Part shown: positions 10,092 to 14,713 of the stretch, in pieces
Position numbering within the stretch: position 1 is the stretch's first letter
Layout: every line of letters begins with the position of its first letter
Origin: an archaeon
GTDB taxonomy: Archaea > Nanobdellota > Nanobdellia > SCGC-AAA011-G17 > GW2011-AR17
DNA: 64,000 nt
Direction of reading: 5' to 3'
NCBI GenBank assembly: GCA_043797705.1
Contig: JAZDPJ010000002.1
Location: 20,833 to 84,832, forward strand
Notes under the pieces: model-generated
Told to the model about the DNA's origin: nothing
The model's input: the letters and a program-made list of their open reading frames with translations, nothing else
Database searches by the model: none
Translations under genes and position numbers: made by a program

Positions 10092-10787
10092 TCAAACATT
10101 CCGAACATCACACTTCTGCACAAACTGCCCGGCAAAATGAGCAAACCCCCGAAGCCGCTGCTCAGAAAAAGGCTCAACTGTTTCGTACTTTGAATCAACA
10201 AGCTTAACCTTAGGATTGAACTGCTGAATAAAATACTTCTTGGCACCAACAATCTCCTTGCAAATATGCTGCAACCTCTCCATATCAAACAAACCAGGAA
10301 CAGCAGTAGTGCGGAACTCATAATCAACATCACTCTTCAACAAAATATCAATAGACCTAAGAATATTCTTAGTATCAACATCAGCATTAACAACCTCAGG
10401 ATAACTATCAAAAGAAGACTTAATATCCATAGCGACATAATCAACAAGCTTGCGATCAATAAGATTACCCAACATCCCAGGATTAGAACCATTAGTATCA
10501 AGCTTAACCTTCAAACCCAAAGACTTCAACTCAGCAAGAAACTCAGGAAGATCACCATGAATAGTAGGCTCACCGCCACTAACACAAACACCATCAATAA
10601 ACTTCCTATGCTCCTTCAAATCCTCAAGAACCCTTGGAATCTGAATCCAATCAGAATCACCATTACCAACCAAACCAGGATTATGGCAAAAAGGACAACT
10701 AAAATTACAACCACCAACAAAAACAGTGGAAACTATATTACCTGGATAATCAACAAGCGAAGTCTTCTGAAAACCTTTTATTATCAT
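10092..10787 (-). CDS. nrdG: Anaerobic ribonucleotide reductase activating protein (radical SAM)
   Basis: CNFSCPFCHNP matches the CxxxCxxC radical SAM motif. Lies immediately downstream of nrdD. Confidence 0.8.
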   Translation of the reverse strand: MIIKGFQKTSLVDYPGNIVSTVFVGGCNFSCPFCHNPGLVGNGDSDWIQIPRVLEDLKEHRKFIDGVCVSGGEPTIHGDLPEFLAELKSLGLKVKLDTNGSNPGMLGNLIDRKLVDYVAMDIKSSFDSYPEVVNADVDTKNILRSIDILLKSDVDYEFRTTAVPGLFDMERLQHICKEIVGAKKYFIQQFNPKVKLVDSKYETVEPFSEQRLRGFAHFAGQFVQKCDVRNV

Positions 10788-10789
10788 CT

Positions 10790-11017
10790 TCAGTACTGCC
10801 TCAGAGAAGGAGACACACGCTTAACCTTATCCTTATCGCTCTTCATACTGACCTCAGTATCATAAGCCTTCCTCTGCTTAAACTCCTCGTACTTGCCCTT
10901 GTTCCAGAACTGCACAGGCCTATGGTACCCCACAACCCTGCTATAAACCTCACATGGAACAACTCTCTCGCCAGTTCTCGCCTCAACCTCTTCCTTAACA
11001 TTTTCTATTTCATACAT
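10790..11017 (-). CDS. nrdD: NrdD C-terminal glycyl-radical segment encoded in a +1 frame relative to nrdD
   Basis: EVYSRVVGYHRPVQFWNKGK is the RxxGY glycyl-radical motif of class III RNR. Its ATG overlaps the nrdD stop (GTA TGA A). Confidence 0.6.
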   Translation of the reverse strand: MYEIENVKEEVEARTGERVVPCEVYSRVVGYHRPVQFWNKGKYEEFKQRKAYDTEVSMKSDKDKVKRVSPSLRQY

Positions 11018-14000
11018 TCATATCACCCTTTATATCTCTCACAATACCATACATCTTAAGCTGCTCCTCTGTATGCTCATGAGGACACTCAAAATGTTCA
11101 CCCTTCACATAACCATGAACTGGACAGATACTGAAAGTAGGAGTCAAAGTGAAATAAGGCAGCTTGAAATTAGTAGCAATCTTCCTAACAAGTGCCTTGC
11201 ATGTCTGAATATCATCAATGCGCTCGCCAAGGAAGCCATGCAATACAGTACCACCAGTATACTTTGACTGAATCTCATCCTGCAGCTGCAACGCCTCAAA
11301 AATGTCATCAGTATAATTCACCGGAAGATGAGTCGAGTTCGTATAATAAGGCTCACCTTCGCCAGCAGTGATGATATCCTGGAACTTGCTCTTGTCAGCC
11401 TTCGCAAGACGATAAGTCGCACCCTCAGCAGGCGTGGCTTCCAAGTTATAGTTATTGCCTGTCTTCTTCTGATAATCAGCAATACGCTCAAGCATCGCAC
11501 CCATCACCCTAAGAGCAAACTTACGACCCTCCTCACTAGCGATACTCTTGCCGAACAGGTTCAAACAAGCTTCATTCATGCCAAGAATCCCGATGGTGTT
11601 AAAATGATTGGACCAATAACTACCTGAAGACTGCTTGACACCAGACAAGTAATGCTTAGCATAAGGATAAAGCCCAAATTCAGTGAACTTCTCAACAGAC
11701 TTCCTCTTAATCTCAAGGCTCAAACTAGCGAGATCCATAAGCCTGAACAACCTCTGCATGAACTCATCCTCATTCTCAGAAAGATAACCTATACGAGGAA
11801 GATTCAAAGTAACTACCCCGAGACTACCTGTCAGAGGATGCGCCCCAAAGACACCGCCCTTACGCCTGATCTCACGGTTGTCCAAACGAAGCCTGCAGCA
11901 CATCGACCTCGCATCATCAGGATCCATATCAGAATTCACAAAATTAGCGAAATAAGGCATGCCATACCGAGCAGTCATCTCCCAAATAATATCATACTCT
12001 GGATTATCCCAATCCAAATCCTTAGTCACATTATACGTGGGAATAGGAAAAGTGAAAATCCTCCCATTAGCATCTCCCGCCATCATCACCTCTGCGAATG
12101 CCCTGTTAATCATCTCCATCTCCTTCTGGAACTCGCCATACTTCTCAGGATTAGGCTTGCCTCCAATGATAACAGGCTTGTCAGCCAACGCCTTAGGACA
12201 CTTAAGATCCAAAGTAATATTTGAAAAAGGACACTGAAAACCTACTCGCGTAGGAACATTCATGTTGAACAGGAATTCCTGCATGGCTTGCTTGACTTCC
12301 TTGTAGGACAGATTGTCATAGCGAACGAATGGTGCGAGGAAAGTATCAAACCCTGAGAACGCCTGCGCCCCGGCACAATTACCACACCAACAAGCCTTTC
12401 CGTTCCTCCTAACATACAATGTATGATTAGGCACCTCCAAGCAATAGACATTCCCCGAATACCTTACTTTCTTAATATTAGACTTCGACAGCCTGAAGTA
12501 TTTAGTCCTTGAAACCCCGATGTCGTACCATCTAAATTTGCCTTTCTTCCTTTCATAGATATTAGCATTCCATCCCAGCTTCAAAACTACCTCCTGAAAA
12601 TCATCTGCCAACCTCCTGCTTTTCGTAGAATATTCCACATTTCCATTTGCAATATACCCGTCACCATTCATCATCCAATCAAATAAAATCTTTAATTGCC
12701 TAGAGGACAATGATTTAACATCATTAGGCAAAAACTTGTCTCCAGCCTTGCCAAACTTCTCCAGATAAGAAAACAATTGCTTATCACAGATAACAAATTC
12801 CAGTTTCTTGCTGTCCACAATCTTTTTATTGTAATTAAATGGCAATTTACTAAGAATGTTTTCAAAAGAATCAGCCACCTTACCCTTATTCTGGGTTATC
12901 CTAACCGCATACTCATAGAAAACCTTTTTTCTCCCTTCTCGTTTTCTTTCCCGCTTATACAAACAGCCTTCTGCTATCCAAAAGCCAAAAAAAGCTAACC
13001 AAACATCCATCGGTATCTTTTTAGGCCCTACTCTCTTTAGAACATACTTATCTCCAAAATGTTGATACTGCCTTATCTCAATGCCTGGCAGAACAAAATT
13101 GGCCTTATCCTTGGTTTTCCAGATAGAAACTTTTGGAATCCAGTTAGTATTAGGGTTAAACTCATTTGCCTTAACAAATTTTGTCGAATTATCTTTCTTG
13201 GCATGAAAATACTGCCAAACCAGCATACTATGCTCTGGAGTCACAAGAAGATCAAGTTTTTTTGTCCTAAAATTATACAGCTCCTGAGACCTTTTATATT
13301 TAAAAAATCTTAAGGGCTTATGCAAGCTTATAACCCCCCTATTGTTCCTAGTGAAGACTTTATCCACCTTCTTCACATCATAAAAATATTTCCAGCCCTC
13401 CTCAGTAAGGACTTCTGTGTCCTCTGAATAGCATTCCCCCTGCAAAGTATAAACAAAATTAGTCACCTGCCCCAAAGCAGCACGCAAGTGCTTCGGCGGA
13501 GCACTCTGAAGCTTGCCCGATACTCCCCCGAATCCCCGGATAAGAAGGTCCTGCAAGTCCCACCCACAGCAATAACTCGCAAGAATCTGCAAATCATGCA
13601 AATGGAAATCACCCTCAACATGCGCATCCCTAATCTCAGGAGGATACACCTTATGAAGCCAATAGTTCGAACTCACTATAGAAGAGATATGATTGTTCAG
13701 CCCCTGAAGAGAATAAGCCATGTTGCTGTTCTCCTTCACACGCCAATCAGTCTCACGCAAATAACCATCCATTATATCATTAGAGTTCACAAAAGACCTG
13801 AACTCCCTCAAACGCTTATGCTGCTCACGATAGATTATGAAAGCCTTAGCAGTCTTGGCATGACCCTCCTCAATAAGTATCTTCTCCACCGCATCCTGAA
13901 CATCCTCAACATTAGGCACAACCTTATCAGAGAAACCCTTGTTCTCCAGATAAGCAACAATCTTCCTTGTCAGCTCCTTCGCCTTGTCATAATCCCTTCC

Positions 14001-14114
14001 GCCAACAGACTTCGCAGCACGGAAGATAGCATCGCAAATCTTCTGAGGATTGAACAAAACAACCTCCTTGTTACGCTTCTTAACCTGAGATATTTCCGTA
14101 GATACCATAATCAC
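11010..14114 (-). CDS. nrdD: Anaerobic ribonucleoside-triphosphate reductase (class III) with N-terminal ATP-cone and one intein
   Basis: ATP-cone at the N-terminus, SMCCRLRLD thiyl-radical region, and a C-terminal zinc-ribbon half. 1034 aa, of which about 352 aa is an intein. GTG start. Confidence 0.85.
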   Translation of the reverse strand: MIMVSTEISQVKKRNKEVVLFNPQKICDAIFRAAKSVGGRDYDKAKELTRKIVAYLENKGFSDKVVPNVEDVQDAVEKILIEEGHAKTAKAFIIYREQHKRLREFRSFVNSNDIMDGYLRETDWRVKENSNMAYSLQGLNNHISSIVSSNYWLHKVYPPEIRDAHVEGDFHLHDLQILASYCCGWDLQDLLIRGFGGVSGKLQSAPPKHLRAALGQVTNFVYTLQGECYSEDTEVLTEEGWKYFYDVKKVDKVFTRNNRGVISLHKPLRFFKYKRSQELYNFRTKKLDLLVTPEHSMLVWQYFHAKKDNSTKFVKANEFNPNTNWIPKVSIWKTKDKANFVLPGIEIRQYQHFGDKYVLKRVGPKKIPMDVWLAFFGFWIAEGCLYKRERKREGRKKVFYEYAVRITQNKGKVADSFENILSKLPFNYNKKIVDSKKLEFVICDKQLFSYLEKFGKAGDKFLPNDVKSLSSRQLKILFDWMMNGDGYIANGNVEYSTKSRRLADDFQEVVLKLGWNANIYERKKGKFRWYDIGVSRTKYFRLSKSNIKKVRYSGNVYCLEVPNHTLYVRRNGKACWCGNCAGAQAFSGFDTFLAPFVRYDNLSYKEVKQAMQEFLFNMNVPTRVGFQCPFSNITLDLKCPKALADKPVIIGGKPNPEKYGEFQKEMEMINRAFAEVMMAGDANGRIFTFPIPTYNVTKDLDWDNPEYDIIWEMTARYGMPYFANFVNSDMDPDDARSMCCRLRLDNREIRRKGGVFGAHPLTGSLGVVTLNLPRIGYLSENEDEFMQRLFRLMDLASLSLEIKRKSVEKFTEFGLYPYAKHYLSGVKQSSGSYWSNHFNTIGILGMNEACLNLFGKSIASEEGRKFALRVMGAMLERIADYQKKTGNNYNLEATPAEGATYRLAKADKSKFQDIITAGEGEPYYTNSTHLPVNYTDDIFEALQLQDEIQSKYTGGTVLHGFLGERIDDIQTCKALVRKIATNFKLPYFTLTPTFSICPVHGYVKGEHFECPHEHTEEQLKMYGIVRDIKGDMNV
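12378..13433 (-). mobile_element. Intein with LAGLIDADG homing endonuclease domain inside nrdD (residues ~228-579)
   Basis: Block A CYSEDTEVLTEEG and block B LVTPEHSMLV. Two LAGLIDADG-type motifs (LAFFGFWIAEGC, LKILFDWMMNGDGY). C-terminal ...NGKACWCGN followed by Cys. More AT-rich than the flanking extein. The C-terminal boundary is approximate. Confidence 0.65.
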
Positions 14115-14145
14115 CGCTTTTTCCCCTTTTAGTCCCTTAAATCTT

Positions 14146-14153
14146 ATTTAAAC
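14146..14153 (-). promoter_or_regulatory. Putative archaeal TATA box (TTTAAATA) for nrdD, ~35 nt upstream of the GTG start
   Basis: Exact TTTAWATA-like sequence on the minus strand in the 55-bp nrdR-nrdD spacer, with GGTGA 5 nt before the start. Confidence 0.3.
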
Positions 14154-14169
14154 ATATCTGTGATGCGAA

Positions 14170-14616
14170 CTATTTCTTCAACAACTGCTTTACCTCATCC
14201 TGAAAAGAGGTTATGTCCGCAAATTCCCGATACACTGATGCGAAACGAATGTAAGCCACCTTATCAAGCCTCATCAGATGCTTCATGACCAGCTCGCCGA
14301 CAACCGCGCTCGGAACCTCATTTGACTTATAGTTCCTCAGCTTGGACTCAATCAGGCTTATCGTCTCCCCAATCTTCTCATCAGATATGCCCCTCTTCTC
14401 GCAAGCCCTAAACATGCCCTTCCTTATCTTCTCAGAATCGAAAATCTCCTTGGCACCGTTCTTCTTAACCACAAAAAGATTCAGAAGCTCAACCCGCTCA
14501 TATGTAGTGAACCTCTTCTCGCAGCCATTGCATTCCCTACGCCTGCGCGTCATCCCATTAGCATCCCGCTTATCCGTGACCTTTGTCTCTGATTTTTGGC
14601 AGAATGGACATATCAT
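14170..14616 (-). CDS. nrdR: NrdR-family transcriptional repressor (zinc ribbon plus ATP-cone)
   Basis: MICPFCQ...ECNGCEKRFTTYERVE zinc ribbon followed by an ATP-cone (VVKKNGAKEIFDSEKI...). Directly upstream of nrdD. Confidence 0.8.
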   Translation of the reverse strand: MICPFCQKSETKVTDKRDANGMTRRRRECNGCEKRFTTYERVELLNLFVVKKNGAKEIFDSEKIRKGMFRACEKRGISDEKIGETISLIESKLRNYKSNEVPSAVVGELVMKHLMRLDKVAYIRFASVYREFADITSFQDEVKQLLKK

Positions 14617-14713
14617 CTTGAATACAACCTCTTGTAGCTAACCACTTACGATTATACAAGATGTTGTGCTTTATATACATTTATATATTTCAAAATAGAA
14701 TTCAAAAAACACA

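Follow-up and report, generated by a model that had tools for sequence, protein, structure and literature searches.

The stretch of DNA analysed (the window) comprised 64,000 nucleotides (nt) of contig JAZDPJ010000002.1 from an archaeon of the Nanobdellota (assembly GCA_043797705.1). It carried nrdD, the gene for the large chain of a class III ribonucleotide reductase (RNR), on the minus strand. The large nrdD open reading frame (ORF) encoded 1032 amino acids (aa) from its ATG, the version deposited in public assemblies, or 1034 aa from an alternative GTG start at 14114. The identical 1032-aa NrdD product was called on three contigs of NCBI and ENA assemblies, including GCA_043811045.1 JBDRNM010000023.1. 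The ORF scored 1001 bits with NF006126 (PRK08270, cut-off 548), in two stretches of which the second began at residue 579, and 497 bits with the NrdD equivalog model TIGR02487 (cut-off 326). Pfam annotation comprised an ATP-cone at the N-terminus as well as NRDD. The surplus length very probably represents a standard class 1 intein in which a double-motif LAGLIDADG homing endonuclease is nested; the insertion is in frame and follows the Glu of a conserved QGE motif. Coordinates of all features are given in Table 1.

The intein comprised ORF residues 228 (start CYSEDTEVL) to 579 (end ...CWCGN), in frame and without a stop codon. In a MAFFT alignment with six intein-free NrdDs of 61–76% identity, a single long gap covered exactly residues 228–579 in all six. 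The N-extein match of these homologues stopped at ...QGE and, in 6/6, alignment resumed at the first residue past the gap, the C-extein covering positions 100–532 of the Pfam NRDD profile. A preceding interpretation made from the nucleotide sequence without database searches (the sequence-only reading) had placed an insert at 12378–13433 in an ORF oversized by about 350 aa. Its coordinates proved exact, intein-free NrdDs having 673–721 aa, and the clean excision at Cys228 and Asn579 that it predicted was borne out by all six homologues. The uninterrupted motif QGE-xAGAQA (hyphen, junction) was present in 109 of the 120 best extein homologues, with x being Ser in 64, Ala in 39, Thr in four and Gly and Val in one each. 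In-silico splicing restored the conserved QGE[S/A/T]AGAQA motif, a check that had likewise been proposed, and the spliced NrdD aligned unbroken across the junction (TLQGE-CAGAQAF versus TCQNE-MHGGQAI in P. copri NrdD, 8p23). The predicted spliced junction peptide is FVYTLQGECAGAQAFSGFDTFLAPFVR.

By alignment, the insertion point corresponded to H122-Q123 of T4 NrdD, 43 residues after the bottom-face Cys79. In the AlphaFold model of an intein-free homologue (P0124), it was positioned in a short loop between helix 191–205 and barrel strand 213–215. The P. copri NrdD paper was found to make no mention of residues Gln216 to Gln223 on either side of the insertion point, and what structural role the site may have is suggested by the alignment and the predicted model alone. 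The DNA around the site was conserved at the amino-acid level with varying wobble positions, 35–46 of 60 nt being identical. The coding site of an intein-less nrdD would read ...CAGGGGGAA before and GCNGCNGGNGCNCAG... after the insertion point; the corresponding natural empty site of locus L003 reads ...CAGGGAGAA and GGGGCTGGAGCTCAG..., and locus L004 has a natural empty site as well.

Residue conservation was evaluated in a 73-member alignment of the intein family, to which all counts out of 73 refer. Cys1 was invariant (73/73) and block B held T65 in 71/73 and H68 in 73/73 members. The intein C-terminus reads VYCLEVPNHTLYVRRNGKACWCGN, followed by Cys+1. The terminal Asn352 was present in 73/73, and the +1 residue was Ser in 40, Cys in 23 and Thr in nine members, with Cys in the window copy. 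All motifs quoted in the sequence-only reading were thus present, i.e., Cys1, TPEH, two LAGLIDADG motifs about 100 aa apart, terminal Asn and Cys+1. Position F:13 was His (His337) in 57/73 members and position G:4 was Trp (Trp349) in 70/73; G:5 was Cys in 46/73 and Ser in 24/73. Position F:4, on which the earlier reading was silent, was Cys (Cys331) in 58/73, Asp in 10/73 and Ser in 4/73. The penultimate position G:6 was Gly in 68/73 and Ser in 5/73; the window copy, with Gly351, has no penultimate His. The sequence-only reading had called this Gly non-canonical, but it is a conserved trait of the family and no oddity of the window copy.

The penultimate His is the usual assisting residue but not obligatory for class 1. 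Inteins without it reportedly include those of Mja PEP synthase, Mja RNA polymerase A' and Ceu ClpP. That inteins can splice with no His in this position has been documented (Chen, Benner & Perler 2000, as cited in PMC4031507), and the penultimate Gly is therefore no bar to class 1 membership. The inteins concerned are likewise class 1 and do not have His at G:6, and some of them splice efficiently. They are scattered cases, whereas the large family of the window intein has a fixed Gly at G:6 together with Trp at G:4 and Cys or Ser at G:5. Class 3 inteins, with the mycobacteriophage Bethlehem DnaB intein as prototype, share Cys at F:4 with the window intein. They are defined by the lack of an N-terminal nucleophile and by a Trp(B:12)-Cys(F:4)-Thr(G:5) triplet (WCT; PMC2807308). 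Assignment to class 3 was rejected, since Cys1 is present (73/73) and the triplet is absent; the window intein has Met at B:12, Cys at F:4 and Cys at G:5, so that the middle position alone matches. The window intein was filed as class 1 with unusual but family-typical assisting residues.

The endonuclease region matched Pfam LAGLIDADG_3 (PF14528) with 51.9 bits against a cut-off of 22.5 (E 1e-13, two stretches). In motif 1, position 155 was acidic in 70/73 members and G156 was invariant (73/73); in motif 2, D258 was present in 72/73, G257 in 71/73 and G259 in 72/73. The AlphaFold2 model of the intein, calculated with the family alignment as input, reached a predicted local distance difference test score (pLDDT) of 96.4 and a predicted template modelling score of 0.93. 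Throughout the 210-residue endonuclease region pLDDT was above 87, and the order of secondary-structure elements fitted a pseudo-dimeric alpha-beta-beta-alpha-beta-beta-alpha fold. In a Foldseek search against the PDB, the top 15 matches were all intein structures. The best was TliVMA 7qsu (E 1e-17), followed by PhoVMA 7qst, PI-TkoII 2cw7, PI-PfuI 1dq3 and PI-SceI 1vde, and by I-DmoI for the endonuclease part. Altogether, the intein is exactly excisable, holds every residue for four-step splicing and has the fold of endonuclease-bearing inteins. The residue counts show a family that, as judged from sequence conservation, has been under purifying selection at splicing and nuclease residues alike.

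Table 1. Features of the nrdD locus in the window and small glycyl-radical ORFs at other loci (positions within the window or the named locus).
Feature	Position	Strand	Details
nrdD large ORF (precursor)	11010..14108	minus	ATP-cone, class III RNR barrel, intein; 1032 aa from ATG 14108
N-extein	13434..14108	minus	ATP-cone, HxHD motif, bottom-face Cys; end ...FVYTLQGE; matches 8p23, 9d3x, 4coi, 1h78 up to junction
Intein, 352 aa	12378..13433	minus	Cys1 13431..13433 to Asn352 12378..12380
C-extein	11010..12377	minus	Cys+1 at 12375..12377; CAGAQAFSGFD..., finger loop SMCCRLRL, end ...CPHEHTEEQLKMYGIVRDIKGDMNV and stop
Splicing (Hint) domain, N-terminal half	13134..13433	minus	block A CYSEDTEVLTEEGW; block B DLLVTPEH; stretch kept in mini-intein P0132
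Block B TPEH	13230..13241	minus	intein residues 65-68
Nested LAGLIDADG homing-endonuclease region	12498..13133	minus	intein residues ~101-312; absent from mini-intein P0132
LAGLIDADG motif 1, LAFFGFWIAEGC	12963..12998	minus	intein residues 146-157; catalytic acid E155
LAGLIDADG motif 2, LKILFDWMMNGDGY	12654..12695	minus	intein residues 247-260; catalytic acid D258
Splicing domain, C-terminal part	12378..12497	minus	block F NVYCLEVPNHTLYV (F:4 Cys331, F:13 His337); block G RRNGKACWCGN (G:6 Gly351, G:7 Asn352)
75-aa ORF, NrdD glycyl-radical domain	10790..11017	minus	...VPCEVYSRVVGYHRPVQFWNKGK..., SRVVGY; Pfam NRDD positions 533-562 of 562
nrdG activase (radical SAM)	10092..10787	minus	Pfam Radical_SAM and Fer4_12; downstream, same operon
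nrdR repressor (Zn-ribbon, ATP-cone)	14170..14616	minus	Pfam Zn_ribbon_NrdR and ATP-cone; directly upstream of nrdD
Small glycyl-radical ORF, L003	5505-5687		
Small glycyl-radical ORF, L004	4515-4703		
Small glycyl-radical ORF, L014			
Small glycyl-radical ORF, L166	3587-3784		
Small glycyl-radical ORF, L167	3696-3863		

The solved structures TliVMA and PhoVMA (7qsu, 7qss, 7qst), PI-TkoII, PI-PfuI and PI-SceI share with the window intein the two-domain layout, with a Hint domain split by a double-motif LAGLIDADG endonuclease, and also Cys1, block B TxxH, the terminal Asn and a nucleophilic +1 residue. Foldseek E-values ranged from 1e-17 to 1e-12 with query-normalised template modelling (TM) scores of 0.53–0.65, at identities of only 10–18%. 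In contrast to the Gly and Cys of the window intein, solved endonuclease-containing inteins have His at G:6 and Asp at F:4. The window intein is also more compact, with 352 aa versus 454 for PI-PfuI, 537 for PI-TkoII and approximately 430 for PI-SceI, as counted in the crystallised chains. The endonuclease region superposed on I-DmoI over about 173 aligned columns, with a target-normalised TM score of about 0.7 and a root-mean-square deviation of 3.0–3.5 Å, the values for the I-DmoI chains ranging over 0.63–0.72 and 3.0–4.2 Å. In both proteins one acidic residue closes each motif. I-DmoI differs in being intron-encoded and free-standing, with 14–18% identity. Ribonucleotide reductases are classic hosts of inteins with LAGLIDADG endonucleases, whose insertion sites are highly conserved, as is the one in the window NrdD. 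For NrdD, phage inteins have been reported from Clostridium phages c-st and D-1873, with traces in Lactococcus phage 949 (PMC3653736). They too interrupt a class III RNR gene, in a phage and not an archaeal host.

The family to which the intein belongs, here termed GN-ending, has the signature CY[SD]xxTE[VI]LT ... RNGKxxW[CS]GN-[S/C/T]. Among 5.8 billion proteins, 671 relatives of the intein were found, with full-length homologues to E 1e-110, and most of the best 120 of these 671 spanned all 352 residues at 28–58% identity. This search returned only proteins of up to 616 aa and missed the 1032-aa protein of the window itself and P0134 (1068 aa). The host list is therefore skewed to short hosts and contig fragments, with polymerases, helicases and full-length RNRs being under-sampled. 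Members were present in more than 15 different host proteins from archaea, bacteria and viral contigs. Hosts named by the sources were NrdD, dCTP deaminase, FAD-dependent thymidylate synthase, UDP-glucuronate decarboxylase / GDP-mannose dehydratase and family B DNA polymerase, and many others were known by Pfam accession only.

A genome scan, with one genome per species and a trimmed alignment of eight intein sequences as query, yielded at least 334 confirmed loci. Archaea with such loci were DPANN, Thermoplasmatales, Thaumarchaeota, Methanoculleus, Hadesarchaea and Asgard; bacteria were Patescibacteria, Omnitrophota, Desulfobacterota, cyanobacteria, Acidobacteriota and Elusimicrobiota. Viral contigs contributed at least 567 loci, all of which were at most 39% identical to the window copy. 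A six-frame motif scan of the window detected no second intein of the family. Neither a description of the GN-ending family as such nor a report on inteins in DPANN ribonucleotide reductases was found in the literature, the coverage of which was incomplete, so that the absence of a description proves little. This very large family is apparently uncharacterised.

Among the best loci, 13 had an intein at the NrdD site of the window copy, and they came from both domains of life. The genomes were those of Woesearchaeota, Nanoarchaeota, Saccharibacteria, Nealsonbacteria, Falkowbacteria, Omnitrophota, Thermodesulfobacterium and Desulfobacterales; Saccharibacteria, Nealsonbacteria and Falkowbacteria are genomes labelled Patescibacteria, and Omnitrophota is likewise a label. 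These same-site inteins (P0001–P0004, P0134; L006–L018, L022) share the pattern ...YT[LMV]QGE-C...W[CS]GN-[S/C]AGA... with the window copy, comprise 349–388 aa and are 51–68% identical. They differ in mostly having Ser+1 where the window copy has Cys+1, and several of their hosts hold one or two further inteins. In the closest NrdD relatives, P0122 and P0123 (L003) with 81–87% extein identity, the site of the window intein was empty and a different intein was located at VGFQ-C...TGN-TPFSN. P0132, with 68–75% extein identity, carried a mini-intein of 151 aa (residues ~223–373) of the same family at exactly the same site, with a short linker in place of the endonuclease region. It offers a snapshot of how the endonuclease is lost.

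For related GN-ending inteins, at least three further insertion sites in NrdD were found, namely VGFQ-..-TPF (P0122, P0123, L022), PLTG-..-S[IV]GV[VI]T (P0005, P0010, P0044, L019–L021, L023–L025, L027) and, four residues upstream of the window's site, ANFIG-..-SLQNEWAGAQAF in a Hadesarchaeon (L031). All three were empty in the window NrdD, and some NrdDs, e.g., L022, contained two or more inteins. The window extein grouped with two DPANN copies in 200/200 bootstraps. The window intein never grouped with these two, and its nearest group was a bacterial copy (Omnitrophota or Patescibacteria) in at least 125/200 replicates. The discordance of the two trees fits homing, and the findings taken together give the usual picture of a homing intein that cycles through invasion, endonuclease decay and loss. 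Exchange between the domains of life has moderate but not conclusive support.

The insert had been described in the sequence-only reading as more AT-rich than the flanking extein. This was confirmed, with a GC content of 37.2% in the intein and 45.1% in the extein, but it is the flanks that are atypical, and the intein is close to the window average of 38.3%. GC at third codon positions (GC3) was 0.42 in the intein, 0.48–0.61 in the extein, nrdR and the small nrdD ORF, 0.32 in nrdG and 0.31–0.44 in most other window genes checked. Extein, nrdR and small nrdD ORF are the compositional deviants, while the intein has the composition of the genome average, and foreign AT-rich DNA was ruled out as the cause on this ground. 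The high-GC3 block of nrdR and nrdD may reflect horizontal acquisition or different selection. The nearest intein-free NrdD homologues included Firmicutes, Spirochaetota and Patescibacteria at 61–65% identity.

The glycyl-radical motif of NrdD (RVxGY) was present but located on a separate ORF of 75 aa, and the large ORF ended at ...CPHEHTEEQLKMYGIVRDIKGDMNV; the sequence-only reading was silent on this split. The 75-aa ORF overlaps the large nrdD ORF by 8 nt in another frame, has a Shine-Dalgarno-like GGGTGAT 4 nt upstream of its ATG and is part of the host enzyme and not of the intein. The same layout was found in P0122, P0130, Thermodesulfobacterium, Spirochaetota NrdD (at least 23 contigs) and Patescibacteria NrdD. 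Among the 120 best NrdD homologues, 76 had no radical motif and stopped at the same place. A full-library search with the 75-aa protein gave 2784 representative clusters at E ≤ 0.001, the best 150 matches all being short (48–175 aa). A split intein or a frameshift error at the 3' end of nrdD was ruled out, since the tails are too short and the layout, start codons of its own included, is conserved. NCBIfam has no model for the small glycyl-radical protein, and the literature search found no split class III RNR, only the split class II NrdJa/NrdJb. The two-gene NrdD is widespread and conserved in archaea and bacteria and is a less expected feature of the locus than the intein. By analogy with GrcA/YfiD of pyruvate formate-lyase, it may be speculated that the radical-bearing part is replaceable.

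The C-terminal metal-binding ribbon at 11050..11130 (minus) had CPVH...CPHEH as its first half, in which His takes the place of the Cys that is frequent in fused NrdDs (CPxC). In many homologues, the His-rich ribbon (CP[HY]EH..E[EQ]L..[FY]G[IV]) co-occurred with the split NrdD arrangement. The NrdR repressor gene was located directly 5' of nrdD, here in an archaeal setting. Imperfect palindromes, TCACAGATATGTTT and CACAACATCTTGTA, were present in the intergenic regions 14117..14169 and 14617..14713 (minus). These palindromes may resemble NrdR boxes.

The steps of splicing and homing were inferred from established intein chemistry, and the spread of the element from patchy occupancy and tree discordance. 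After translation of the 1032-aa precursor, Cys1 would carry out an N-S acyl shift at Glu(-1)-Cys1 with the help of Thr65 and His68 of block B. The resulting thioester would be attacked by Cys+1 to give a branched intermediate. Cyclisation of Asn352 would then free the intein without a penultimate His, presumably aided by His337 and Cys331 of block F, and an S-N shift would join ...TLQGE-CAGAQAF.... The expected product is a 680-aa NrdD large chain, working with the separate glycyl-radical peptide and NrdG. The free intein, with E155 and D258 holding metal ions, would cut intein-less nrdD at the coding site of QGE-[S/A]AGAQ. Repair off the intein-bearing copy would complete homing, the +1 codon being co-converted to Cys or Ser. 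Since the +1 residue of intein-free NrdDs is often Ala or Gly, invasion must co-convert this codon.

Several observations weigh against a functional class 1 homing intein. Generic intein-splicing hidden Markov models matched the correct intein ends but all scored below their curated cut-offs, with 23.9 bits for TIGR01445 (cut-off 24.5), 19.5 for PF14890 (35.8) and 13.6 for PF01079 (29.7). The match to intein and LAGLIDADG profiles that the sequence-only reading had named as a check was obtained above cut-off for the endonuclease only, and the splicing domain was assigned from its homologues, key residues and fold. Searched by sequence against every PDB chain, the intein gave no match at E ≤ 1. 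Two common assisting residues, the penultimate His and Asp at F:4, are gone, and splicing kinetics could be slow or conditional. As far as we are aware, no splicing and no DNA cleavage has been seen in any member of the GN-ending family. Retained nuclease acids, as a sequence feature, need not indicate an active endonuclease. The intein/extein discordance had moderate bootstrap support only. No intein-free allele of a near-identical nrdD (>90%) was found, and ongoing homing in the population is thus not evident.

A rival reading is an intein that splices but whose homing endonuclease is dead, i.e., a resident, vertically inherited element en route to a mini-intein and kept since imprecise loss ruins QGE-xAGAQA. 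The mini-intein P0132 of the same family at the same site shows this degeneration pathway at work in the lineage. GC and GC3 of the intein near those of the host genome fit a long residence, and no relative exceeded 70% intein identity (best full-length matches 62–68%), which gives no sign of a very recent transfer. However, both catalytic acids and the adjoining Gly are kept and near-invariant in the family, the entire endonuclease region was modelled with high pLDDT and the intein tree conflicts with the extein tree. A dead endonuclease is possible but rather unlikely. We consider it improbable that Cys331 acts as an auxiliary nucleophile in a hybrid of class 1 and class 3, or that the thiols of Cys1, Cys331, Cys348, Cys350 and Cys+1 form disulfides that block splicing until reduced. 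The invariant Cys1 and the intact Thr and His of block B provide an ordinary class 1 start, the WCT triplet is absent from the family (Met or Leu at B:12, Cys or Ser at G:5) and F:4 is Asp in ten and Ser in four members, so that Cys is not obligatory. The same Cys pattern also occurs in hosts unrelated to anaerobiosis (dCTP deaminase, ThyA, sugar dehydratases) and is thus not an NrdD-specific adaptation. What speaks for such a role of thiols is the prevalence of Cys at F:4 (58/73) and G:5 (46/73), with the usual F:4 Asp and G:6 His both gone, and the oxygen sensitivity of the host enzyme NrdD. Also in favour are redox-trapped inteins, reportedly described by Callahan et al. in 2011, with disulfides in Pab PolII and Mma PolII. 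Furthermore, class 3 inteins need Cys at F:4 as nucleophile (PMC2807308; PMC4031507).

It is hardly credible that the insert, instead of being a functional intein, reflects a chimeric assembly, a pseudogene of nrdD or an insertion domain that stays in the protein for good. In favour of such a reading, the source is a metagenome-assembled genome, and the nrdD frame, stopping before the glycyl-radical domain, appears damaged at first sight. However, three contigs of NCBI and ENA assemblies encode the identical product, the insert is stop-free and in frame with exact boundaries and all catalytic residues intact, and the early stop is part of a two-gene layout that many lineages conserve and that has a start codon and a ribosome-binding-like motif of its own. 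The class 1 intein with a nested homing endonuclease in nrdD is an ordinary, intact addition to a large familiar kind of element.

Annotators should treat the 1032-aa product as a 352-aa intein within a 680-aa NrdD large chain, since pipelines based on length or profiles may otherwise flag it as aberrant. The biological novelty is small. In the GN-ending family, F:4 Asp and G:6 His have given way to a thiol-rich centre (Cys1, F:4 Cys and G:5 Cys/Ser, the last preceded by G:4 Trp), and there is a slight chance that its members splice by a distinct thiol-dependent, redox-gated form of the class 1 pathway. If so, maturation of the oxygen-labile NrdD would be conditional on reducing conditions. 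With the radical domain supplied in trans, the RNR would then be assembled after translation from three parts, i.e., two ligated exteins and a replaceable radical peptide. The family with penultimate Gly and F:4 Cys would lend itself well to mechanistic studies and might supply new splicing tools. The use of at least three other NrdD sites by related inteins is of modest value. A single short motif of NrdD acts as a hot spot of intein insertion common to DPANN archaea and to bacteria labelled Patescibacteria and Omnitrophota, with signs of exchange across the domains of life.

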